Shown here in pieces: positions 332-39,831 of a stretch of 39,831 bases of DNA. Source of the stretch: Clostridia bacterium (GTDB lineage Bacteria; Bacillota; Clostridia; Christensenellales; UBA1242); contig JAFSVX010000020.1 in assembly GCA_017444785.1 (NCBI GenBank), forward strand, positions 1-39,831, written 5' to 3'. Positions within the stretch are counted from its first letter, which is position 1. Every line of letters starts with the position of its first letter. A program made the position numbers and the translations under genes. The notes beneath the pieces are model-generated. The model was not told the DNA's origin. It did not search any database and saw only the letters and a list, made by a program, of their open reading frames with translations.

Positions 332-687
332 TGGTGGAGGCGGCGGGAATTGAACCCGCGTCCAAACAATCTGAAAGCACCCTTCTTCGTTCTCCAGTTG
401 GTTTATAAGTTTCATCTGCCATCGAAAGCCAACAATCTTAAGCAAACAATCTTGGCCTTATTTTCGAGAATAGGTTATGCCAAGAAATAAACTATCTCAC
501 CTTACTTTACTTTAACAAGCCTTTGAACCAGTAAGCCTTTCAAAGCACCCGAGCCGCTTAATTTACGCAGCAGCTAAAGCTAAATTTTCGTTAGCGTTTA
601 TTTTTTCACCACTTTTAAGGTCTTTGGTGAGGACCAGAACGCTTATAATGTTTTCGATCAATTGCCTGTCGAAACCAAATCGCCCCC
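332..687 (-). ncRNA. ssrA: tmRNA; tag reading frame 595-563 encodes ANENLALAAA*
   Basis: 5' GGGGGCG..GGTTTCGAC and 3' GGTTCAATTCCC..CGCCTCCACCA with the G3-U alanine identity pair; resume context AATAAAC-GCT; adjacent to smpB. Confidence 0.96.
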
Positions 688-714
688 ATGTAAGAGGACT
701 TTGCCAAGAAGAAA

Positions 715-1161
715 TTATTTAAAGTTTTTGATATCCCTTGAAGTTTCCCTTGAAATGTCTTTTTCTTTTAAAGATTGTTTCTTTTCGTAAAGGTGTTTAC
801 CTTTTGCAAGTCCCAAAAGCACCTTGACGATACCATCTTTAAAATATGCTTTAAGTGGAATAAGTGTAAAGCTTTTGTCTTGCACCTTTCTTTCCAGCCT
901 TGCAATTTCGCTTTTATGGAGCAAAAGTTTTCTGCTTCGCTTTTCGTCCTGCTTAAAAGCCGATGTCTTTTCATAGCAAGGAATGTTTGCGTTTATCAAA
1001 AACACTTCACCATTTCTTATCACTGCATAGTTGTCTGAGATTGTCAGGTGCCCTGCCCTTAAAGACTTAACTTCTTGTCCTGCAAGAGCGATGCCACACT
1101 CATACGTTTCTTCAATGAAATATTCAAAATTTGCCTTACGATTTACTGCTATTTCTTTCAT
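715..1161 (-). CDS. smpB: SsrA-binding protein
   Basis: NRKA.FEY, G..L.G.EVKSLR, RKLLLHK.EI and GKHLYEK motifs; lies between rnr and ssrA. Confidence 0.97.
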   Translation of the reverse strand: MKEIAVNRKANFEYFIEETYECGIALAGQEVKSLRAGHLTISDNYAVIRNGEVFLINANIPCYEKTSAFKQDEKRSRKLLLHKSEIARLERKVQDKSFTLIPLKAYFKDGIVKVLLGLAKGKHLYEKKQSLKEKDISRETSRDIKNFK

Positions 1162-1173
1162 CTTTGCTCCTCG

Positions 1174-1202
1174 ATTATATCACATAGTTTTTCATTTTTC
1201 AA
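1174..1202 (-). promoter_or_regulatory. sigmaA-type promoter for smpB
   Basis: TTGAAA-N17-TATAAT with TG extension. Confidence 0.65.
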
Positions 1203-1358
1203 GATGCTTTTTTAAAATTATTATATTTTTTTACTGTTTTTAAGCAAAATTTATGCATTTTTGCGTTTTTTAGCCCTATTTTCACTCACAATTAGTAAAT
1301 TTTCTGCATTTTTCTGCAAAATTATTTTTCAAATTTTTGATATTATTGCAAATATGAT

Positions 1359-3524
1359 TTAAAAGACATTTTTTCTGCTGTCTTCTGAGATATTGCAGAT
1401 TTCAAAGTCGATGTGGCGCGTGTTTATATCTGCAGCCGCAACCCTTATTTTCAATCTTTCCCCAAGCATAAACCTGTTGCGTCTGCCAACAAGCATATAC
1501 CTTGTCTGATCAAAGATGTAATGATCCTCTGGCAAATTCTCAAGATATATAAATCCTTCAATAGTGTTATCAAGTTGCACAAACAATCCTGCATCTGTAA
1601 CACCACTTATATTGCCCTCATAAATCTCTCCAATTTTATCGCGCATATATTCAGCTTTTTTCAGGTCATCAACCTCTCTTTCTGCAGTTTCTGCATTTCG
1701 TTCAGTAAGAGATGACTGGTCCGCTGCCTCTTTCACAAACTCGCCAAGGAAATTTAATTTTTCCATAGTCAACTTATTTCTCAGATAAAGCTTTATAATT
1801 CTGTGAATAGTCAAATCTGGATATCTTCTTATTGGAGAAGTAAAATGGCAATAATCGCGCAGTGCAAGACCAAAATGCCCCAGATTTTCACTGTCATATC
1901 TTGCTTTTTGCATGCTTCTGAGCATAACTTTACTGATTGGCTGACTGTATGGCGTATCTTGGATTTCTAAGAGCAGTTTTTGGAAATCTTTTGGATCGCT
2001 TCCATCAACTCCACCTTGAAGCTTCAGTCCAAAGCTTGAGACAAAATCACGGAACGCTTTGACGCGCTCATAGGTTGGCTCTTCATGCACACGAAATACA
2101 AAAGGCAATTTCAAATTATCAAAGTGATTTGCAACAACCTCATTTGTTACAACCATAAATTGTTCTATCAGCCTGTCACTTAAATTGCGTGGCTTTTGCG
2201 TAATAGATGTTATCCTGCCCTCTTCATCAATATCAATTTGAGCCTCTGGCAAATCAAAGTCAAGCTGACCTGCACGATTTCTTCTTTCCAAAAGCAGAAC
2301 TGCAAGTTTCGCCATTTGCTTCAGCATAGGCACAATCTCTTTATAAGTATGGCAAAGTTCACTGTCGCCGTCAAAAATTTTGGTAACATTGGTATAGGTC
2401 ATGCGATATGCCGAACGAATCACACCCTCAAAGAAATTATAGTCCTTTATATTTCCGTCTTTGTCAAACTCCATGACCACTGAAAGTGTCAGCCTGTCCT
2501 CATTTGGATTGAGTGAACAAATGCCATTTGAAAGAGATTTTGGAAGCATAGGAATAACATAGTCAGGAAAATAGACACTTGTTCCACGCCTGAAGGCTTC
2601 TTTATCAATGACTCCGCCCTGTTTTACATATTCACCAACATCAGCAATATGCACACTTAAAACATAGTTTTCCCCTTTCATTTTCAGTGAGATTGCGTCA
2701 TCAAAATCCCTTGCGTCTTCACCATCGATTGTGATGGTGAGCTCATTTCTGAAGTCTTTTCTGCCTTTGATTTGATTTTCAGTTATTGGGACATTCAACT
2801 TGTCCGCCTCTTTCACGACATTTTCAGGGAACTCATCAATAAGCCCAAAACTGCGAATAACAGAAAGCGTGGAAACTTTGAAGCTCCTTGCATCACCAAG
2901 CACCTCAATAACCTCACCCTGAGCCATACGAGTTCTTGTTGGATACTCTGTGATTTTCACCACAACTTTCACCGTTCCAGAAGCTCCATTAGCTTTGTTT
3001 GCAGGGATAAACATGCTGTCTGCAAATCTGGCGTCATCAGGAACGACAAGTCCTCCGCCAGATGTTGGAGCATATGTTCCAACGATAGTGGTAAAGCCTC
3101 GCGCCAAAATACGAATAACTCTTCCAATTGTTCTGCCACGCGCAGCTTGTGGAGTTTTTCCTCTGAAATTTCTGCCCTTCTGTTTGCCAAGAATTTTCAC
3201 AAGCACAGTATCGCCATGGCTTGCACCTTCAAGGTCTCTTTCTGAGATAAAAATATCAAGTCCGCCACTTGCCGGCCTTGCATAGCTATACCCATTTGGA
3301 CTGCCAATAATGGTGCATTTTATTGCACCACTGTTGTCTGCAAGCGTGTATTTATTACGTTTGGTAAAGACAATCTGATCAGCTTTCACCATCTCACTGA
3401 GCGCAGAGGCGAGCGCCTGCCTGTCAAATCCTCGCGAAAGACCAAGAGCTTTGGCAATTTCGTCAAAGTCAAAATACTTTTGTCCGCTTTCAAAAACTTT
3501 TAAAATACTTTCTTTAAAATTCAT
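1359..3524 (-). CDS. rnr: Ribonuclease R
   Basis: TIDGEDARDFDDA and HFTSPIRRYPDL RNB motifs; N-terminal HTH/CSD; C-terminal S1. Confidence 0.96.
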   Translation of the reverse strand: MNFKESILKVFESGQKYFDFDEIAKALGLSRGFDRQALASALSEMVKADQIVFTKRNKYTLADNSGAIKCTIIGSPNGYSYARPASGGLDIFISERDLEGASHGDTVLVKILGKQKGRNFRGKTPQAARGRTIGRVIRILARGFTTIVGTYAPTSGGGLVVPDDARFADSMFIPANKANGASGTVKVVVKITEYPTRTRMAQGEVIEVLGDARSFKVSTLSVIRSFGLIDEFPENVVKEADKLNVPITENQIKGRKDFRNELTITIDGEDARDFDDAISLKMKGENYVLSVHIADVGEYVKQGGVIDKEAFRRGTSVYFPDYVIPMLPKSLSNGICSLNPNEDRLTLSVVMEFDKDGNIKDYNFFEGVIRSAYRMTYTNVTKIFDGDSELCHTYKEIVPMLKQMAKLAVLLLERRNRAGQLDFDLPEAQIDIDEEGRITSITQKPRNLSDRLIEQFMVVTNEVVANHFDNLKLPFVFRVHEEPTYERVKAFRDFVSSFGLKLQGGVDGSDPKDFQKLLLEIQDTPYSQPISKVMLRSMQKARYDSENLGHFGLALRDYCHFTSPIRRYPDLTIHRIIKLYLRNKLTMEKLNFLGEFVKEAADQSSLTERNAETAEREVDDLKKAEYMRDKIGEIYEGNISGVTDAGLFVQLDNTIEGFIYLENLPEDHYIFDQTRYMLVGRRNRFMLGERLKIRVAAADINTRHIDFEICNISEDSRKNVF

Positions 3525-25450: not shown

Positions 25451-25855
25451 AAAAATAAGACATCAACAAATGTTGATGTCTTATTTTTGGCTCCCCTGAT
25501 TCGTCGCAACTCGTCCTTATTGCTCATTTTGACTTTAATCAAAATTTCGCCTTACTGTCGGTTACTCCTCTCCCCGCACGAAAATCATAGATTTCCTACA
25601 GGGACCCCATACAAGAATCCTACCCTTGTGAGCAAAAAAAATAGCGACGCTGATGCGTCACTATTTTTTGGCTCCCCGGATTCGTCAGAACTCATGCTTG
25701 TCTTAGCTTGTTTTGAAAATTCAAAACTTCGCCTTGTCTTTCGCATGGTTCTTCCTCTCCCCACAAAACCACTGCGTATTTTTGCGGGGCACCCCAATTA
25801 TGAATCCTACCCTTGTGAGCAAAAAAAATAGCGACGCTGATGCGTCACTATTTTT
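25451..25855 (-). repeat. tRNA-Asn-linked tandem repeats (187 and 181 bp units)
   Basis: The tRNA 3' end ATC(C/A)GGGGAGCCA recurs at 25856, 25669 and 25488, each followed by a terminator hairpin; structured cores at 25681-25796 and 25501-25609. Confidence 0.9.
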
Positions 25856-25930
25856 TGGCTCCCCGGATAGGATTCGGACCTACGACCTTGTGATTAACAG
25901 TCACCTGCTCCACCACTGAGCTACCGGGGA
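25856..25930 (-). tRNA. tRNA-Asn(GTT)
   Basis: TCCCCGG/CCGGGGA-GCCA acceptor, anticodon loop CTGTTAA; promoter TTGCAA-N17-TATAAT at 26002-25974. Confidence 0.93.
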
Positions 25931-26135
25931 ATATATGTAAACTTACGCTTGGTTTCCAAACGCAAGTAAACGTATTATATAATAAACCTTTCAAGATTGC
26001 AAGTGTTTTTGAAATTTTTATCTAAGTTTTTATAAAATAATCAATATTCCACCTGCAATGATAATTTTGATTGCGGTTAAATCGATTATAATTCATTTTT
26101 TGTATTATTCATTCAAAATATTAAATATGATCAAT

Positions 26136-26714
26136 TTATTCAATATAATCGATGATAAAACTTGCGACAGCATCTTCAAACTCGACATTAAGCCTATAAG
26201 TTTGGCTATACTCAAGCCCAGTTATGCTCTCTTTAAGTATATCAGTAACTGCTTTCATATTTTCACTTGTTATCAAAACATCAATACCAAACCAAGAGTC
26301 GCCAACATCTTTAATAAATTCATCAGTGAGTGCTTCGCTGAGATTTATTTCATAAGTTGACTGCACATCATCGCTTGTGATGTTTGCAATAAAAACAGCT
26401 TTTACAAACGCGCCGGTGTCAAGAAATGAGTATTTTTCAAGAACTGTGTAAGTTTTTCCATCCACATCAAACTCTGTTTCGCCATCATGGTAAATAGGAT
26501 TGTCTTTTCCGATGATATAGACTTTCTCAGTATGATATTTATCTTTATAGACAAGTTTTTCAACAGACTTTTCCACCTCCACCGTTTTGTATGGTCTTGG
26601 CAGAACAATCGCAAGCACAACAATAGCCACCAAAAGCGCAGCAATGATACTAAGATAAATCTTGTCGCGTCTTGTTATTTTGATAGTGATTTCATCTTTA
26701 GAATTGTTTTCCAT
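26136..26714 (-). CDS. Membrane-anchored hypothetical protein
   Basis: N-terminal TM helix; starts 2 nt after the upstream stop. Confidence 0.75.
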   Translation of the reverse strand: MENNSKDEITIKITRRDKIYLSIIAALLVAIVVLAIVLPRPYKTVEVEKSVEKLVYKDKYHTEKVYIIGKDNPIYHDGETEFDVDGKTYTVLEKYSFLDTGAFVKAVFIANITSDDVQSTYEINLSEALTDEFIKDVGDSWFGIDVLITSENMKAVTDILKESITGLEYSQTYRLNVEFEDAVASFIIDYIE

Positions 26715-26716
26715 AA

Positions 26717-27148
26717 CTACCTCAAGATGATTGTGGAAGAAGTTGGGCAGATCTCCTCACCTTCCGCCAAAACAATAGATTCACCATGCTTATACTCTTT
26801 CACATAGTTACCAATACGGATATTGAATGTTCCCTCATTTTCATAGGCAGAAAGAACGGTATATTTTCCTGGCTTAATCACACCTTTTTTGTCCACTTTC
26901 ACCATTTTTCTTGGTTGCAAAACGATATCGTCTTTGACGTATGACACATTCTGGTTGCCTTCTTTATCCACGATTTCCGCATCAGGAGTATATCTTACGC
27001 CGTCTTTTTCCACGACATCTTCAACCTGTCTTGACTTAGACTCTTTTTTCTCTTTATTTTTTTTTACCATTTTCTTGATGGTTATAATTGATGTTATAAA
27101 CACAATTAAACCCAAAATTCCATAAAAAATATATCTTATAAAATCCAT
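26717..27148 (-). CDS. Membrane-anchored hypothetical protein
   Basis: AAGGAG RBS, N-terminal TM helix, beta-rich C-terminus. Confidence 0.75.
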   Translation of the reverse strand: MDFIRYIFYGILGLIVFITSIITIKKMVKKNKEKKESKSRQVEDVVEKDGVRYTPDAEIVDKEGNQNVSYVKDDIVLQPRKMVKVDKKGVIKPGKYTVLSAYENEGTFNIRIGNYVKEYKHGESIVLAEGEEICPTSSTIILR

Positions 27149-27222
27149 AAGAATTCTCCTTTCTTATTTTAGTTTAGCATTATTTTCTTGTTTTTACAAG
27201 CAAAAATGATGCATTTTGCAAA

Positions 27223-27783
27223 TTATTCATGCCCAGGATAGACTTTTTTACCTATAAGATAGGGCTTCAGTTTGATCAGACTTGTAACAAGTTTGCTTCG
27301 ATTTCCGTCCAAAAGGTCAGTCCTGCCATAGACTCCGTCACCAAAATATGTGTCCCCAGTGAATATTTTGTCGCCATAGATAATACACACACTACCCGAG
27401 GTGTGCCCAGGGGTGAAAATAAACTCAAATTCCTAACTTAAAAGTTCTTTTTTACCCTCTATAATAAATTCATCAGGCAAACACTTTGGTACTGTGCAGT
27501 CATACAAAAATCCCATGTTTATCTCACTGTCCAAAAGCTTTGGTGCATCGTCCTCACTGATCAGCACTTTTGCACCCATATCTTTAAGCGCTTTTGCAGA
27601 GAAAATATGATCAAAATGCCCATGTGTCAAGACAACAAACTCTGGCTGAACTTTAAGCTCTGAAATGGTCTTTAAAATCAGGTCGGTGTCAAGTCCCGGA
27701 TCAATAACAATAGCCTTCCCATCTTTTGAAAGCACATAGCAATTTTCATTCAATTGTCCGTTCGTAATCTTAGTTATTTTCAT
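27223..27783 (-). pseudogene. Glyoxalase II-like MBL hydrolase interrupted by an in-frame TAG at 27435-27433
   Basis: THGHFDH before the stop; the same frame continues [32 protein letters not shown] to TAA at 27223. Confidence 0.85.
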
Positions 27784-27799
27784 GTTTATCCAACGTTAA

Positions 27800-28837
27800 T
27801 TATAAAATATTGATGATGTGGTCAGCATAGCCATACACGTTTTCAAGCTTAATCATACTGCCATCGTCAAGAGTGATTTTGCCCGAAAATGAGCCAAACG
27901 CTTGATTGTGGTTATGCAAAAAGCAAAGTCCAAAAATTTTGTGTTTATTCAGTGCCACAGGATCAAAGGTCAACTCAATTTTTCCATCACTGCTGTAAAA
28001 TGTCCAGGTTCCCATATAGTCTTTGCCCGAGCCTTGCTTTTGAATATAGATCTTGACCTCATCAATAAACTCCATTTTTCCGTCATAGCAAAGCATGCTT
28101 TTGTCGTTAATTTCATTATTGCCTGGGCCCATGCTCAGTTTCATGGCAAGGGGTTTCTCACGATCCACTTTGAAAAGCAAACATGCATTTCGCATGGTAG
28201 TTTTAAGTGGAAAACAGCCTCTTGAAAACTCATAAAGAGCTTGGCTTTCCTCTTCATAGATCCCATATTCTTTGCCGGCAAGTGTGAATCTTCCTGCCAC
28301 ACTTGAAGCACAAATAGTGTTTGTAAAACAGAAATGATATGGATTTTTGAAAGTTGACGACTCCAAAAAGTCCATTTTATTATCAAGTTGAACAGTGAAA
28401 TCGAACACAAAATTTGAGTTCGTCTCGTTGGTGAAAAAGTTGTCAAAATAGCCTGTCAAGTGGGTTTTCCCGCCGTTGATATCAAATTTAAACTCAGCAT
28501 TTTCAGTCTTAAGATAGGAAACGCCTTTTTCTGGATTATCTGAAAGGATTGTGGCATTTAAAGGCCTCTTTATCTTGGATTTGTTGAAATAAACCTTATT
28601 TCTCATAAAGTCGACAACAGTGGCAGTCGCAAACGCCAAACCATTGCGCTCAGTTATTGCTAAAGATAAAGCGAATCTTGAATCGGAAATATAAAACAAA
28701 TCCTGAGCTTTGATCTTCTTTTTATTTTTAGCACAATCTTGATTGTAAGAAAGCACAAGCTTATCTGTAAAGCAATAGTTTTTGACTCTGCCGTCTGCAT
28801 TCAAAAGTACATCTTTTTTCACAAGTTTTTCTGACAT
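27800..28837 (-). CDS. DUF2804-like beta-rich protein
   Basis: LLN.DG, SRG.FP, W.F.S.DG.IELTF.P and Q.FG.FSG.I.L.DG patterns. Confidence 0.7.
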   Translation of the reverse strand: MSEKLVKKDVLLNADGRVKNYCFTDKLVLSYNQDCAKNKKKIKAQDLFYISDSRFALSLAITERNGLAFATATVVDFMRNKVYFNKSKIKRPLNATILSDNPEKGVSYLKTENAEFKFDINGGKTHLTGYFDNFFTNETNSNFVFDFTVQLDNKMDFLESSTFKNPYHFCFTNTICASSVAGRFTLAGKEYGIYEEESQALYEFSRGCFPLKTTMRNACLLFKVDREKPLAMKLSMGPGNNEINDKSMLCYDGKMEFIDEVKIYIQKQGSGKDYMGTWTFYSSDGKIELTFDPVALNKHKIFGLCFLHNHNQAFGSFSGKITLDDGSMIKLENVYGYADHIINIL

Positions 28838-29074
28838 ATCTATTCCCCTTTAAACGAATAAATCAATTTTAAACAAGTAAATTTTTGCCCCAAGCAATAA
28901 AAAAAATAATTTTACTGATGTTATAATAACATATTTTTTATAACTCTGTAAAATTATTTTAACTATTATTTAATATTTTTATGTGATATCTTTGTATAGG
29001 TCTCAAAGATTTCAACATTAAAGATATAATCTATCTTGAAAAACTAAAAAATATATGATATAATTGCCAAGTCT

Positions 29075-29992
29075 ATGATGAAAACAACTTTGAAAGACAA
29101 CCAAATATTGATGTTTATCGACTTTAATAATACTCTTGTCGACTATGAAAATGAGTATAACGACTTCACCCCTCGCGGAATGGATGAAGCCATTTACAGT
29201 CGTCCTTTTACCATACGCAAAAGAGTTATCGATTGTTTAAGATACTTTGAAAAACAGACCGGTCTGACTCCTGTTGTCTGTGTTGTTACCAACGCGAAAG
29301 CTGATGCACTTGATATAAATGGTTCGCCAGGAATTTTTGAAGATTTCAAAATGACTTTTTTCCCTCCTGAGCAGCTTTTAAACAATTCTCTTTCACAAGC
29401 TTGTGCAAAGTATTTAAAATATATCACATATGCTAGGAATGATTACTATTTCAAAGTAAATCCAGAAAAATATACAAATAACATGTTTGAAAAAGTTTAC
29501 TTTGATGATAAAATCTTGACAATCAGGTATGCTCCTGACTTTAAGAAAAAAGAAATGGTTGACAGAATGTTAACAACACTTGATCCAACCAAAAGCACCA
29601 GCAAATACATTATTTTTGCCGGCGACAGCATCAAAGACGACTACCCAATGAAAGAAGTTGAGACTCCTGAAGGTGTCTGCAAGATTTTCATAAGACCATT
29701 CCGTGCGAAAAAAACCGCCTCTCCACACGTAAAATTGCAATTTGCAAAAGCTAAAGGTGAAATATTTACAATGAAAAACCAACAAAATGGCAAAATAATA
29801 AAACACCTTGACTATAACAATATTCAATTTCTGCCTATTGATGAGCAACTTAAACTTGACAATTATTCCAGCGGAGACATCATTTATCTTACTCAGAAAA
29901 ACAGTAGAGGTCTTACTGATGGCCTATATAAAGCCGCCGATTTCATTGCAAGTAATCTCCAAAATAAAGAAGATACAGAAGAAATGGAATAA
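29075..29992 (+). CDS. Divergent HAD-like hypothetical protein
   Basis: MFIDFNNTLVD (motif I-like), VVTN (II), FAGDSIKDD (IV). Confidence 0.65.
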   Translation: MMKTTLKDNQILMFIDFNNTLVDYENEYNDFTPRGMDEAIYSRPFTIRKRVIDCLRYFEKQTGLTPVVCVVTNAKADALDINGSPGIFEDFKMTFFPPEQLLNNSLSQACAKYLKYITYARNDYYFKVNPEKYTNNMFEKVYFDDKILTIRYAPDFKKKEMVDRMLTTLDPTKSTSKYIIFAGDSIKDDYPMKEVETPEGVCKIFIRPFRAKKTASPHVKLQFAKAKGEIFTMKNQQNGKIIKHLDYNNIQFLPIDEQLKLDNYSSGDIIYLTQKNSRGLTDGLYKAADFIASNLQNKEDTEEME

Positions 29993-30072
29993 ATCATAAC
30001 GTTATATGCACAAATCATAAAATGCTATATAAACAAAAATTTACAAGATGTTAAAAAATTTTGGAAAATATG

Positions 30073-30101
30073 TTGACAAAAACAATCAGTTTTGCTATTA
30101 T
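30073..30101 (+). promoter_or_regulatory. sigmaA promoter of the tRNA-Ala/Ile operon
   Basis: TTGACA-N17-TATTAT with TG extension and AT-rich upstream region. Confidence 0.8.
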
Positions 30102-30134
30102 AAGTAAGCATTTTGATTGAAGTGCATCTTTTGT

Positions 30135-30211
30135 GGGGGTATAGCTCAGCTGGCTAGAGCACCTGCCTTGCAAGCAGGGGGTCAGCGGTTCGAATCCGCT
30201 TACCTCCACCA
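30135..30211 (+). tRNA. tRNA-Ala(TGC)
   Basis: GGGGGTA/TACCTCC-ACCA acceptor, loop TTGCAAG, GGTTCGAATCC. Confidence 0.97.
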
Positions 30212-30321
30212 CACGGTGATAAAGGTTTATACCTCACCCTCGCATTCATGCTCTGTTGCGAGTAAAAATAACAGACATAATTTATAAAATCATTTTTTAT
30301 GAACACCATTAAAAATGATAT

Positions 30322-30398
30322 AGGATTGTAGCTCAGCTGGTTAGAGCACCACCCTGATAAGGTGGGGGTCGGTGGTTCGAGTCCACTCAATCCTACCA
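30322..30398 (+). tRNA. tRNA-Ile(GAT)
   Basis: AGGATTG/CAATCCT-ACCA acceptor, CCACC-CTGATAA-GGTGG arm, GGTTCGAGTCC. Confidence 0.97.
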
Positions 30399-31017
30399 GC
30401 AAAAAGCCAAGCACTTGCTTGGCCTTTTTTGTTGGTGATTTAGTGACTTGACATTCTCCGGTCCCCCACCTTATCAAGACTGGGGTCCCCATAAAATTAC
30501 GCAAGTGGTTTTATGGGGAGAGGAACGGCCATGCGTTTACACAAGCGAAGTTCTTGCTTTTGCAAAAACAAGCAAAAGTCAAGCATGAGCCGTGACGACG
30601 TGGGGGCCGTGGTTCGAGTCCACTCAATCCTACCAACAAATAAAGCACCCTTGTGGTGCTTTTATTTTTGGGTTGAATTGGACTTGACAAACACCCACTT
30701 GCGAGATGTATGTACGCTATAATTATGCGGAAAATTTATGGCAGCAGATTTGTTTAGATTTTTGAGATAAAAGGCAGGAATAAGGTTCGCCATAAGGTGA
30801 TCCTATGGCGGTTCTTATTCGTGAGCTTTTAGCCAAAAAGATGAATAAAGATGCGTTGAATCGTTGGCGCCGATTCGGTAGAGAGGCGCAATACTTTCCT
30901 TTCGAGTCCACTTGAGTCCTACCAACAAAAAGCCAAGCTTTTGCTTGGCTTTTTTTGTTGGTGTTATGTGGGCTTATTGTCGCCTATCCCCACCTTATCA
31001 AAACTGGGGTCCCCATA
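30399..31017 (+). repeat. tRNA-Ile-linked repeat array
   Basis: tRNA 3' end regenerated at 30600-30635 and 30901-30924, each followed by a terminator and an inverted tRNA-like arm; core at 30481-30599 is homologous to the Asn-linked cores; truncated core at 31005-31017. Confidence 0.9.
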
Positions 31018-31044
31018 ATAATATATCTAATTTTTTTCCTTGCA

Positions 31045-32046: not shown

Positions 32047-32556
32047 TTAAATTTTTGCCAACTTTTCCAAAATGCTGTCTGCAGAATTTACTCTGCTTCC
32101 ATAAATTGCTGTGCCTTCCTGAATTTCAGAATTTGGAAGAAGCTTTCGCAAATCCACTTCGGAAGATCCAAAACCACTTCCTTCGTGCGATACTATTGGG
32201 ACAATAGTTTTTCCTGAAAAGTCAAAACTCTCCAAAAAAGTAAACACGTGGACAGGAAATGTTCCCCAGTAGATTGGGTAAATCAAGAATATCTTGTCAT
32301 ATTCGTCAACACTTTTAAGGTTTTCTTTAAGTGCAGGTCTTGCGTTTTTACGTAAATCCTCTTTTGCTTCATCAATGCAAATCAAATAGCTGTCTGAATA
32401 AGGTTTAAGTGGTTCAATCTTAAACACATCTGCTTCTGGCAATAATGCTTTAAGTTTTTCAGCCAAAACCTCATTGTTACCTTTTTCAAGATATTTGATT
32501 GATCCGCCAGAATAATTTTCCCCTGCCCTTGAAAAATATACAATAAGTATTTTCAT
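32047..32556 (-). CDS. Flavodoxin
   Basis: VYFSRAGENY, YPIYWGT, HEGSGFG motifs; GGAGG RBS before ATG 32556. Confidence 0.92.
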   Translation of the reverse strand: MKILIVYFSRAGENYSGGSIKYLEKGNNEVLAEKLKALLPEADVFKIEPLKPYSDSYLICIDEAKEDLRKNARPALKENLKSVDEYDKIFLIYPIYWGTFPVHVFTFLESFDFSGKTIVPIVSHEGSGFGSSEVDLRKLLPNSEIQEGTAIYGSRVNSADSILEKLAKI

Positions 32557-32627
32557 TACTCCTCCTTTAACTACTTTAAATATATCATAAATGTTAATAA
32601 AATCATAATAAATTTTCAATATTTTCA

Positions 32628-32654
32628 AAAAAAGCAGGGTAGACACCCTGCTTT
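32628..32654 (-). terminator. asnA terminator
   Basis: AAAAGCAGGGT..ACCCTGCTTTT hairpin with T tract. Confidence 0.8.
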
Positions 32655-36905: not shown

Positions 36906-37475
36906 ATGAAAAAAACAGAATCTAAAAACAATAAAGTCACTATTTCACAAAAAGTAGCAGAAGCATATGAAAAGATGTCAGAAAGTGATAGAAATAAACT
37001 TTTAAAAAAATATAACATAGAAACTGTTCTATTAAGTATATACTATATTATTGCGCTTCCGGTTGTAGTTACAATATTACTTCAAATGGAGTTAGAAAAT
37101 ACAGGGTTAGAAAATATTTATACTATAATAACCTTTTTCATTGCTTTTATATTGACATTATTATTCATAAAATACAGACACTTATTCACGAAAGCTTCAA
37201 AAAAATCAAAAGTAAAAAATATCATTAAACAGTATAAACTATTTTCTGAAGATCCATTAAAATCGTACAAATATAGATATTACACAGAAGATAAAGGAAC
37301 ACGCGCTCTAATTTACGTTGGTATTGGATCTATGTTGCTATTTGCTGTTGTCGGTATTTATGTGGTTTTTACAAACATAGAAATTGGTGCAAAAATTATA
37401 TTTTCAATTTTTTCAGTTATATTAATTTTAAGTTCTATTGTTTTGTGGATTAAATGTTTAAAAAAGCCAAAATAA
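36906..37475 (+). CDS. Four-TM hypothetical membrane protein
   Basis: Four hydrophobic segments; 15 nt after the preceding ORF. Confidence 0.7.
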   Translation: MKKTESKNNKVTISQKVAEAYEKMSESDRNKLLKKYNIETVLLSIYYIIALPVVVTILLQMELENTGLENIYTIITFFIAFILTLLFIKYRHLFTKASKKSKVKNIIKQYKLFSEDPLKSYKYRYYTEDKGTRALIYVGIGSMLLFAVVGIYVVFTNIEIGAKIIFSIFSVILILSSIVLWIKCLKKPK

Positions 37476-37546: not shown

Positions 37547-39349
37547 TTAATTTTCACTAAACTGGCTGTTATAAAGTTCTGCATAAAAGCCATTTTTCTC
37601 AAGTAAGTCTTTGTGCGTGCCACTTTCAATTATATCTCCATCTTTCATGACCAATATCAAATCTGCATTTTTTATTGTTGAAAGACGATGTGCAATCACA
37701 AAACTTGTTCTGCCTTTTGTCAAATTATCCATTGCATTTTGAATAACAAGTTCCGTCCTTGTATCAACGTTACTTGTTGCTTCGTCCAAAATAAGAAGCG
37801 GACTGCCTTTAATCATGGCTCTTGCGATTGCGAGTTGTTGTTTTTGACCTTCAGAGAGTGCTCCATTTTCTTCTATGACAGTGTCATAACCTTTTGGCAA
37901 TGTTTTTACAAAGTGTGAAAGGCCAACCGCATCGCAAACTTTGTCAAGTTCTTCGTCAGTGACTCCTTGTTTGTTATAGACAAGGTTTTCCCTAAGCGTT
38001 CCATTAAACAACCACGTATCTTGAAGTATCATGTCAAACAGGGCATGAACATCTTCCCTCTTCATATCTTTAAGAGATTTACCATCAATCAAGATGTCAC
38101 CATTATCAACCTCATAGAACCTCATAAGCAGATTTACAATAGTGGTCTTACCCGCCCCGGTCGGCCCAACAATTGCAACCTTTTGACCAGCCTTAAGTTT
38201 TGCAGAAAAATTATGAATGATCGTCTTGTCTTTGTCATATCCAAACTTGACATTGACAAACTCAACATCACCCTTTATATCTTTAAGCTTAAGAGTTTTG
38301 TTTGATTCATCATCCATTTCCTTGGCTTCAAGGATCTCAAAAACACGTTTTGATGCTGCTGACGCTTGTTGAAGCGCAGTCATGCTTTGTGCAAACGTAG
38401 AAAGGGGCTGACTGAATAATCTTGCATAGATAACGAAAGAAATCAGCGTTCCGATTGTTACCTGTGTTCCGCCGTTAAGTATTATAGCAACCCCAACAAT
38501 AAATATAAGAACATAGCTGAGATTTCCAACAAATATCATAATGGGCATCATCATCCCAGAAAGGAACTGAGATTTCCAATCCACACTATAAATCTTGTCA
38601 TTCTTTTGACCAAATGTTCGCTTTTCATTGTCAACCGCGCCATAGGATTTAACAATCTTATAGTTGGTATAGACTTCTTCAACCTGACCGTTTATTTCAC
38701 CAATATGTTCCTGTTTTTTGTTGAAATACTTTTGAGATTTCGCAAGAATAAGTGCCATAAGCACAAACCCAAGCAGTGATGAAACAATTGTAACAATGGC
38801 AAGCACCCAGTTAGAGATGAGCATCATCACAGTAACACCAATAAACAACACAAGCGCACTAATAAGGTTTGCAAGGCTTGAGCCAAGTGTTTGCGAAATC
38901 ACATCAACATCGTTTGTCACGCGGGAAAGTATGTCACCACGGGTGGTCTTATCAAAAAATGATAATGGCAATTTGTTTATTTTTGTTTCCATATCAGTTC
39001 TCAGCGATTTTGATGCTTTTTGCGTGATGATCGCCATAATAAACTGCTGAATGTATGAAAACAACACCCCACCAGCATAAAGACAGATAAGCAATATACA
39101 AGTGTTTGTAAACGCTGTCATGTCAATACCACCGATGATGCCCTTTGTGATAATGTTCATAAGGTCGGAAATTTTATCTGGCCCAATAATGGTTGTCACC
39201 GCACCAACAACTGCGCAAAAGATACTTATGATTATTGCAGGAAGATAAGGTTTGCAATATGCAAACATCTTTTTTAAAGCTTTGATGTCCAGTTTTTCTT
39301 TTTTATCGGATCCTCTTCTCATTGGTCCGTGTCCCATTGGTCCTGGCAT
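37547..39349 (-). CDS. Heterodimeric ABC exporter subunit (TMD+NBD)
   Basis: GPTGAGKT, LSEGQKQ, LILDEATS; start MPGPMGHG after AGGAGG. Confidence 0.95.
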   Translation of the reverse strand: MPGPMGHGPMRRGSDKKEKLDIKALKKMFAYCKPYLPAIIISIFCAVVGAVTTIIGPDKISDLMNIITKGIIGGIDMTAFTNTCILLICLYAGGVLFSYIQQFIMAIITQKASKSLRTDMETKINKLPLSFFDKTTRGDILSRVTNDVDVISQTLGSSLANLISALVLFIGVTVMMLISNWVLAIVTIVSSLLGFVLMALILAKSQKYFNKKQEHIGEINGQVEEVYTNYKIVKSYGAVDNEKRTFGQKNDKIYSVDWKSQFLSGMMMPIMIFVGNLSYVLIFIVGVAIILNGGTQVTIGTLISFVIYARLFSQPLSTFAQSMTALQQASAASKRVFEILEAKEMDDESNKTLKLKDIKGDVEFVNVKFGYDKDKTIIHNFSAKLKAGQKVAIVGPTGAGKTTIVNLLMRFYEVDNGDILIDGKSLKDMKREDVHALFDMILQDTWLFNGTLRENLVYNKQGVTDEELDKVCDAVGLSHFVKTLPKGYDTVIEENGALSEGQKQQLAIARAMIKGSPLLILDEATSNVDTRTELVIQNAMDNLTKGRTSFVIAHRLSTIKNADLILVMKDGDIIESGTHKDLLEKNGFYAELYNSQFSEN

Positions 39350-39350
39350 A

Positions 39351-39831
39351 TTACAGTTCCTCCTTTGAAAGTTGAGAAAGAGCAATTTCCTTATAGACCG
39401 TGCAACTTTCAAGCAGATCTTTATGCGTTCCCATGCCCACAACCTTGCCCTCATCAAGAACTATGATTTTGTCAGCATTCATAATAGTTCCAATTCTTTG
39501 AGCAACAATGATGATGGTTTTGTCTTTCAAGTTTTTCTTAATTTTGTTTCGCACAAGCGCATCTGTCTTATAGTCAAGTGCAGAGAAACTGTCATCAAAA
39601 GCAATTATCTCAGAACCTTTGAAAACCGCCCTCGCAATTGAAATTCTTTGCTTCTGTCCGCCCGAAAAGTTTGTCCCACCTTGAGAGACTTCTGAATTTA
39701 CCCCCTTCTCCATATCAAGAACAAAATTCGCACCAGAAATATCTATTGCATCAAGCAGTCTCTTATCATCATCTGCAACTTCTTCATCGAAACCATAAGT
39801 TATATTTGATTTAATCGTCCCCTTAAATAAA
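39351..39831 (-). CDS. Heterodimeric ABC exporter, degenerate-site subunit (3' part)
   Basis: FSGGQKQR, FDDSFSALD, VAQR; open to the window edge. Confidence 0.93.
   Translation of the reverse strand, partial: LFKGTIKSNITYGFDEEVADDDKRLLDAIDISGANFVLDMEKGVNSEVSQGGTNFSGGQKQRISIARAVFKGSEIIAFDDSFSALDYKTDALVRNKIKKNLKDKTIIIVAQRIGTIMNADKIIVLDEGKVVGMGTHKDLLESCTVYKEIALSQLSKEEL

Follow-up and report, generated by a model that had tools for sequence, protein, structure and literature searches.

The window analysed here, a 39,831-nucleotide stretch of DNA from a Clostridia bacterium, is contig C56 of an 844,111-bp assembly (genome G000; 65 contigs, 36% G+C, 86% complete). It carries one tRNA gene on the minus strand, for tRNA-Asn, and two on the plus strand, for tRNA-Ala and tRNA-Ile, which form an operon with a predicted promoter at 30073-30101 (Table 1). 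Behind tRNA-Asn and tRNA-Ile lie arrays of short units built around a repeated element that we call core A. A first-pass annotation of the window had reported three cores and a stub with a common layout and covarying stems, and had read them as parts of a non-autonomous, tRNA-targeting element whose variable arm serves as a guide. We recovered the three cores with both nhmmer and a covariance model, and the stub with blastn, and the common layout and the quoted stem pairs were borne out in alignments. Overall, our analysis supports that interpretation in part: the description of one structured, non-coding, multi-copy family outside Rfam is supported, whereas the reading of the arm as a guide is not.

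We conclude that core A is a previously uncatalogued, strand-specific structured RNA family of 105-120 nt (~115 nt). Each copy consists of UGGGGU, a 14-bp hairpin (P1), AGAGGA, a long hairpin (P2-P3) with one bulge and an inner loop, and GACGA. Using a profile built from the three window cores (nhmmer, E < 0.001), we identified 19 copies in the small, 0.84-Mb genome of this gut bacterium. For the 18 full-length copies, RNAalifold predicted 32 base pairs, of which 21 have changed on both sides, in agreement with the covariation that the first-pass annotation had reported. Paired cells made up 95.1% of this alignment, compared with 82.0% in shuffled alignments, and none of 500 shuffles reached as high a value; sliding the pair partners left only 39-48% of cells paired. 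A further 71 copies from related genomes gave 93.2% paired cells, compared with 68.0% after shuffling, with compensatory changes at 31 of the 32 pairs, in an alignment that was fitted to the covariance model and hence favours the structure. Copies within one genome have diverged, yet they keep the fold. Two positions are mostly G-U on the tRNA-sense strand, both in the window genome and in its relatives, so that only the strand running with the tRNA can fold. A strand-specific fold is typical of RNA, and is compatible with single-stranded DNA as well. The boundaries of core A are well defined: 86-87 of 87 copies carry G-A-C-G unchanged, the 5' end is (U)GGGG, and the six bases preceding the core are ~80% A/T. 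The cores matched no Rfam 15 family at the gathering score or at E values up to 10, and divergent copies matched none at E values up to 1. Likewise, there was no core A match among the Rfam models of self-cleaving ribozymes (hammerhead, twister, pistol, hatchet and hepatitis delta virus-like).

Four other roles for core A were considered. The A/T-rich bases preceding the core lack a -10 pattern, and no promoter was predicted between the terminators and the cores. AGAGGA resembles a ribosome-binding site and is accompanied by ATG, GTG or TTG in 10 of 18 copies; the other eight have no start codon, and the bases concerned covary as a stem, so a coding role was rejected. The junction strands do not fit the hammerhead consensus, nor was there an Rfam match. 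Finally, neither type of RNase P RNA was found in the 86%-complete window genome; type A is present in six of the ten other genomes of the genus, and the idea that core A replaces RNase P was dropped.

The three window cores sit in units with a common architecture. Directly past the terminator hairpin of the tRNA gene comes an arm, in which the tRNA 3' part is found again in inverted and decayed form. It begins with the complement of CCA (as read at the Ile, Asn and Glu loci) and is well preserved only in its core-proximal portion. The tRNA 3' part, the terminator and the arm thereby form a long imperfect palindrome centred on the terminator, with the core 4-8 nt beyond its foot; right after GACGA, the 3' part is repeated. 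The unit order given in the first-pass annotation (tRNA 3' end, terminator, arm, core, repeat) therefore stood, and the extent given for the arm did not, the arm being a longer, decayed copy of the whole 3' part. The repeated part is 13 nt long at the window tRNA-Asn and 37 nt at the window tRNA-Ile. Read outward from the tRNA, the Asn array comprises terminator TA, an arm and core 1; then the repeat, a second TA, a second arm and core 2; and finally the repeat with one mismatch and terminator TB. The core-proximal 11 nt of the first arm complement the junction of T-arm and acceptor stem, and are followed by a 5-nt A/T linker (25797-25801). The first repeat, second TA and second arm constitute an 81-nt direct repeat that is 94% identical to the copy adjoining the tRNA. 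Nested insertion predicts an outer terminator unlike the inner pair and a mismatch in the final 3' repeat, and both are seen; the array fits two nested insertions at one junction, with the original end and terminator pushed outward, in which case TB is probably the original terminator of the tRNA-Asn gene. In the Ile array, a core A unit is followed by a unit with an unrelated cargo (family B) and then by a stub of core A; the third terminator and arm resemble the first. The last 14 nt of the first Ile arm are perfectly complementary across the junction (linker, 30477-30480), and the stub falls within a 36-nt repeat that is 92% identical to 30464-30499.

Table 1. Positions of the tRNA genes and array features in the window; the linker of the second Asn unit (25610-25614) is listed with its arm
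Feature	Position	Strand	Basis
tRNA-Asn(GTT), intact host gene	25856..25930	-	ARAGORN; Rfam tRNA
Terminator hairpin TA, copy 1, right behind CCA end	25821..25855	-	sequence; inverted repeat
Arm 1, decayed inverted copy of tRNA-Asn 3' part	25802..25820	-	sequence reading; arm tests
Core A copy Asn1 (UGGGGU, P1, AGAGGA, P2/P3, GACGA)	25682..25796	-	nhmmer E 1.6e-29; covariance model 117.7 bits; fold
X1, repeat of last 13 nt of tRNA-Asn, abuts GACGA	25669..25681	-	sequence
Terminator hairpin TA, copy 2	25634..25668	-	part of 81-nt direct repeat
Arm 2, then 5-nt linker 25610-25614	25615..25633	-	sequence; direct repeat
Core A copy Asn2	25501..25609	-	nhmmer E 9.6e-25; alignment
X2, tRNA-Asn 3' end repeat with one mismatch	25488..25500	-	sequence
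Terminator TB, unrelated to TA	25451..25487	-	inverted repeat
tRNA-Ala	30135..30211	+	
tRNA-Ile(GAT), intact host gene, second in Ala-Ile operon	30322..30398	+	ARAGORN; Rfam tRNA
Terminator T1	30399..30431	+	terminator scan, stem 30406-30423
First Ile arm, decayed inverted copy of tRNA-Ile 3' half, CCA back to anticodon loop	30432..30476	+	sequence; arm tests
Core A copy Ile1	30481..30598	+	nhmmer E 2.3e-31; covariance model 114.2 bits
X, tRNA-Ile 3' half repeat, anticodon stem to CCA	30599..30635	+	direct repeat, 92% identical over 39 nt
Terminator T2, unlike T1	30636..30670	+	terminator scan, stem 30642-30662
Arm of next cassette, inverted decayed copy of tRNA-Ile T-arm region	30672..30698	+	sequence reading
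Family B cargo, ~205 nt, unrelated second repeated element	30696..30899	+	nhmmer E 2.9e-62
X', tRNA-Ile 3' end repeat, T-loop to CCA	30902..30924	+	sequence; direct repeat
Terminator T3	30925..30957	+	91% identical to T1 over 47-nt repeat; terminator scan
Third Ile arm, related to first Ile arm	30958..31000	+	alignment; direct repeat
Stub, first 14 nt of Ile core A copy, then unrelated sequence	31005..31018	+	blastn; direct repeat

We compared this architecture across the core A copies of the window genome and its relatives. The downstream flank is duplicated upstream of the core in 30 of 83 analysable copies, and 19 of these 30 have a significant arm, defined as a score reached by at most 1% of shuffled sites. 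All 19 significant arms span the junction p from which the 3' part is repeated, covering 5-10 nt on its 5' side and ending 1-8 nt before the core. Within the window genome, an inverted match scoring at least 8 lies downstream of 10 of 23 tRNAs, compared with one of 23 in a reversed-sequence control. Among 19 tRNA-linked copies, the repeat measures 5, 12, 13, 13, 17, 19 (four copies), 20, 22 (two), 26 (two), 38, 40, 63, 71 or 73 nt. When we mapped these 19 junctions onto the cloverleaf, 13 came to lie in the D, anticodon or T loop, a count in which some copies are orthologous and hence not independent. Two loci involve tRNA genes in antisense: at L023 a 14-nt perfect arm matches the 5' part of a tRNA-Ser gene that runs in the other direction, and at L132 a core A copy abuts an antisense tRNA-Leu, which argues against recognition of the tRNA molecule itself. 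In the RNA, the arm and the repeated 3' part could close the core in a helix (P0); its predicted energy is -15 kcal/mol or lower in 42% of 85 copies, compared with 16% when flanks are mismatched.

The closest known relatives of these units are the tRNA-linked repeats (TLRs) of Escherichia coli, with which they share a cassette architecture across phyla. The TLR family is described as comprising 22 units at ten loci, non-coding, often in tandem and with a common family core, each unit ending in 18-19 nt of the upstream tRNA or rRNA gene; in the excerpted text of the same source they have no known function except RrA, RrB and RrF, which are made from read-through transcripts and processed, and no arm is mentioned (PMC8144298). 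Inspection of the E. coli K-12 tyrT/rtT repeat revealed 178-bp units with a 22-nt inverted arm to the variable and T-arm region, across TTCG/AAT in the T-loop, followed by ~80 nt of cargo and a 19-nt repeat. Four Clostridial copies have the same TTCG/AAT junction. TLRs lie immediately behind tRNA or rRNA genes, and the core A units at the window tRNA-Asn and tRNA-Ile are likewise placed right behind a tRNA gene, in its orientation, and finish with its repeated 3' part. The order of spacer, inverted arm across the junction, cargo and 3' repeat is common to the tyrT repeat and the Clostridial units. The first-pass annotation had cited tyrT/rtT as a loose precedent; with the inverted arm included, the precedent is instead a close one. 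At the threshold used, we found no inverted match in the argQ/argZ and rrfB units, although the arg units keep a weak one by eye. The two groups differ in that core A is a different and much more strongly folded core, the E. coli units sharing another conserved hairpin (compared by eye); the repeat is 18-19 nt in E. coli and 5-73 nt in Clostridial units (exactly 19 nt in four); the Clostridial unit usually holds a terminator inside; and, in Clostridia, protein genes, loops of terminators and other RNA motifs serve as targets too.

The arm and the core are separable. The order of terminator, inverted arm, cargo and repeated 3' part also encloses unrelated families (B-E). Family B (~205 nt) has ~20 nhmmer matches in the genome (in the window, on contigs C42, C40, C57, C53, C43 and C24, and on others), with conserved blocks and hairpins, and it had the tRNA-linked layout in the three cassettes inspected, at tRNA-Ile, at tRNA-Glu(TTC) and at tRNA-Asn of relative G005. 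Family C is a ~105-nt cargo in two tandem units behind tRNA-Leu(TAG) (contig C28, 4070-4154, minus strand); a related copy lies upstream of tRNA-Leu(TAG) in mirrored order, as tRNA 5' fragment, cargo and arm (L126). Two further cargos with the same architecture occur in a genome lacking core A. None of these families had an Rfam match, the nearest being a sub-threshold one of family B to MicX (40.4 bits against a cut-off of 75; E 1.7e-6 in a 5.9-kb search). In three tandem units of G008 there is almost nothing between arm and repeat, and arms stand alone behind tRNA-Arg(ACG) and tRNA-Ser(TGA) of the window genome. Because the same architecture surrounds unrelated cargos and the E. coli tyrT repeat, and exists without cargo, the arm is not the scaffold's guide: arm and scaffold are independent of each other, and the arm is not owned by core A. 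The first-pass claim of a variable arm that tracks its target thus held for the match to the upstream gene and failed for the arm as a guide belonging to the scaffold.

These data bear on the possibility of an RNA- or single-stranded-DNA-guided mobile element, in which the arm would pick the site by pairing and a trans-acting enzyme or the core itself would carry out strand transfer. Such an element would account for significant arms that cover both sides of the junction without exception, for the 5-10 nt at the 5' side that have no partner in the cassette, for the regular spacing to the core, and for junctions concentrated in tRNA loops, including the E. coli position. The layout is also reminiscent of group I introns, whose internal guide is complementary to the ligated exons. 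The resemblance to group I and II introns goes no further than an arm that spans the junction: no intron family matched in Rfam, the core is only ~115 nt, and the reverse transcriptase domain RVT_1 was found in only one of ten genus genomes. However, the same arms surround four unrelated cargos, the E. coli repeat and no cargo at all, and there are scaffolds with no arm. In addition, the candidate enzymes (RVT_1, Y1_Tnp, TnpB and IS110) do not track core A among 41 relatives, and the acquisition of a new guide would be left unexplained. We consider a guided element rather unlikely.

Core A also occurs apart from arms. Of 87 copies, 20 have a duplicated flank and an upstream tRNA on the same strand, 10 have a duplicated flank without a tRNA, four abut a full tRNA, three lie in family B, and two were placed by rule in terminator loops. 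The first-pass annotation had proposed a tRNA-targeting element; only 24 of the 87 copies are directly linked to a tRNA, with others in mRNA leaders, terminator loops and the pemK motif. The relatives thus go part of the way towards copies lying mostly away from tRNAs, a situation which that annotation had named as speaking against its reading, together with an Rfam match or an absence of significant covariation, neither of which was found. In four armless copies, core A stands straight before a full tRNA and abuts its mature 5' end. One of these is in the leader of a tRNA-Gly operon that is orthologous in two species, where the core is ~95% identical and the upstream leader ~70% identical (our count). 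Another armless copy adjoins the ribosome-binding site of ftsH in G028, and a further one lies upstream of a cdaA-like gene (our reading of the open reading frame, ORF). Core A is also found in the loops of terminator-like hairpins that belong to another repeated unit, inside family B, and in the loop of the first hairpin of the Rfam pemK motif (L133 and L139, where the match to pemK extends across core A). At L062, a copy lies at the 3' terminus of a protein gene, and this terminus is duplicated. Its presence in other hairpin loops and in gene leaders indicates that core A is also a modular RNA domain in its own right.

The armless copies raise the alternative that core A is a non-mobile cis-acting or small RNA, serving tRNA operons and certain mRNAs as a leader, processing or stability domain, with arrays formed solely by local duplication, the origin usually assumed for repeats. 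The tRNA-Gly leader is conserved above its surroundings, as would be expected of such an RNA, and so is L015; the positions next to a mature tRNA 5' end and the ftsH ribosome-binding site, the single copy in many Clostridia and the retention of the fold in diverged copies of one genome agree with it as well. By contrast, presence or absence at the same tRNA varies among species of one genus, copies sit within the loops of pemK and family B and at a duplicated protein-gene end, sharply defined ends recur in unrelated contexts, and genomes of ~1 Mb reach 19-38 copies. On balance, we regard this alternative as unlikely.

Several observations lie close to these insertions. At L016 (contig C3 of G010), L061, L014 and L055, and on contigs C7 and C10 of the window genome, tandem short units end in a terminator-like hairpin, the loop of which is short in some units and holds a core A copy in others. 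At L132 (1177-1450, minus strand), a SAM riboswitch match of 53.9 bits extends over 274 nt for a 108-position model, and a hairpin of this riboswitch may carry a large insertion. In relatives (L131 and L108), a short repeat with the sequence GTCATTCTGAGCG turns up in more than one genome close to core A or to tRNA arms, and may represent a further small repeated element.

Core A is widespread. Covariance-model matches were found in 20 of 41 relatives, which include all ten other genomes of the genus (4-34 copies) and members of four further genera of the bacterial family (up to 38 copies). Among 151 genomes sampled across Clostridia, 28 carry core A (covariance model, E up to 1e-5), many of them as a single copy. 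Six contigs of the window genome (C59, C39, C10, C43, C58 and C7) have a core A copy no more than a few hundred bases from their end; the repeats probably break the assembly, and copy numbers are therefore lower bounds. For annotation, this means that the units probably account for many contig breaks and "partial tRNA" calls in metagenome-assembled genomes from the gut. Comparison of filled and empty sites, which the first-pass annotation had proposed, revealed insertion polymorphism at tRNA-Asn within the genus: among the ten genomes, core A is present at this site in G002 and G003, family B in G005 and three core-less units in G008, and no such unit was seen downstream of tRNA-Asn in G006, G010, G004, G001, G007 or G009. 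We saw no joint that adds or removes a unit among DNA contigs from four runs on the region, which are short, low-depth pieces. Our literature searches returned nothing on such elements in Clostridia.

No enzyme was found that accompanies core A. None of the 30 window ORFs scanned with Pfam has a recombinase, transposase or reverse transcriptase domain, as the first-pass annotation had also noted for recombinases, the larger ORFs 32047-32646, 36906-37475, 37547-39457 and 39351-39830 being outside that scan; nor does any neighbouring ORF recur at 61 core A loci. RVT_1 was detected in 10 of 41 relatives and is not found in the copy-rich genomes G005 and G022-G024; Y1_Tnp was detected in 6 of 41 relatives and one of ten genus genomes, the TnpB domain in 3 of 41, and IS110 in 4 of 41. 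Several of these genomes are incomplete, such that the scores mean not found rather than absent. Reverse transcriptase, Y1 transposase, TnpB and IS110 genes, the four families tested, do not track core A. The non-autonomy proposed in the first-pass annotation is thus consistent with the lack of an enzyme beside the copies, but its trans-acting enzyme has no candidate among these families. Core A adds a widespread, strongly supported structured RNA class to Clostridia, with 19-38 copies in some genomes of ~1 Mb that have hardly any transposases.

Core A can also be compared with other small elements. Miniature inverted-repeat transposable elements (MITEs), REP/BIME sequences and derivatives of IS200/IS605 are likewise small, non-coding, multi-copy and stably folded, and depend on enzymes acting in trans. 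Unlike a MITE, core A lacks its own terminal inverted repeats and shows no fixed short target duplication, and the inverted repeat flanking it is derived from the target and variable in length. Unlike IS200/IS605 derivatives and TnpB guide RNAs, it does not co-occur with Y1 transposase or TnpB, and an IS110 bridge RNA is not indicated given a DEDD transposase in none of the 24 genomes of its own family. Integrative elements that use tRNA genes carry a replacement 3' part, which leaves the gene intact and a partial copy at the far end. The Clostridial cassettes share this layout, but are only ~190-240 nt long, have no integrase and carry an inverted copy of the site. Integron attC sites and the attP of CTX phage are imperfect hairpins of 80-110 nt that take the place of a duplex site, and their cassettes line up in arrays next to a fixed point. 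The likeness to attC and attP lies in the imperfect hairpin and the cassette arrays, but the Clostridial hairpin takes its sequence from the target and is not a site specific to the element. attC sites are described as hairpins of single-stranded DNA in the excerpted main text of PMC5737381, where the word "pemK" does not occur. The pemK RNA motif (RF02913) is found in the same organisms as a host of core A insertion and not as a relative, and an Rfam search gave no pemK match to the window copies.

We lean, with somewhat better than even confidence, towards core A units being a Clostridial counterpart of the tRNA-linked repeats, one that carries a new structured RNA and would probably spread in the form of small cassettes, by hairpin-dependent DNA recombination and with the help of host functions. 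A cassette would consist of the tRNA 3' part from p, the terminator hairpin, an inverted copy reaching 5-10 nt past p, an A/T-rich linker and the core, and would enter at p by Campbell-type recombination within the shared 3' part, which would keep the tRNA gene whole and leave the displaced original 3' part after the cassette. The hairpin formed by 3' part, terminator and arm in single-stranded DNA is the probable recombination substrate, and host functions probably perform the recombination since no element-specific enzyme was found. Arrays would then grow through further insertion and unequal crossing-over. By analogy with RrA, RrB and RrF, transcription probably continues past the tRNA terminator into the cassette, and helix P0 together with the repeated 3' part would give the RNA a tRNA-like 3' end. 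This reading ties core A to the long-unexplained TLRs through their shared architecture and may help to explain the origin of such repeats, a question that diverged copies, varied cargos and empty sites make testable.

Several findings weigh against cassette spread of this kind. The recombination step is putative, and we saw no circular or excised form of a cassette. Repeated 3' parts can be as short as 5-13 nt, which is less than ordinary homologous recombination needs; 11 of the 30 copies with a duplicated flank have no significant arm; and 48 of the 87 copies are unclassified, because the regular expressions for terminator loops were too strict (two copies were caught, and at least ten show the layout by eye). 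In the Asn array, the two cores are visibly more diverged than their 94%-identical flanks (alignment by eye), which requires later gene conversion or another route. The A-B-A order of the Ile array recurs in the tRNA-Glu array (contig C24), whose two core A copies are nearly identical, suggesting that tandem amplification rather than repeated insertion probably made part of the arrays. Lastly, a test for wobble-type mismatches in the arms counted 36 versus 25, with 115 other mismatches, and pairing of the arm at the RNA level stays putative.

The palindrome itself allows a reading in which template switching at quasi-palindromes (T-arm and terminator hairpin) makes the duplications and core A merely fills the gap passively. 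A palindrome with the terminator at its centre is indeed formed by 3' part, terminator and arm, many junctions coincide with the T-loop sequence, itself palindromic, the architecture occurs in E. coli and Clostridia without a shared enzyme, and arms without cargo exist. However, filler would not repeatedly be drawn from the same few families with exact ends, nor would it keep a covarying fold, and the regular spacing from arm to core is not predicted; we therefore find this reading very improbable. Only slightly less doubtful is an integrative element that is independent of proteins or driven by host enzymes, in which the folded strand would show the copy of the target as a hairpin, the 5-10-nt arm extension would act as a toehold, and the three-way-junction core would catalyse or recruit strand transfer at the GACGA end. 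If this were true, the same process would have left the tRNA-linked repeats of E. coli, which have lacked an explanation since 1978, as its relics.

Two further features of the window lie outside the arrays. A metallo-beta-lactamase-fold ORF of 116 amino acids (27433-27783, minus strand; region 27212-27783) covers only the first part of the domain before an in-frame stop, and may be a broken gene or reflect a sequencing error. Side by side on the minus strand, at 332-3524, lie genes for tmRNA (tag ANENLALAAA), SmpB and RNase R.

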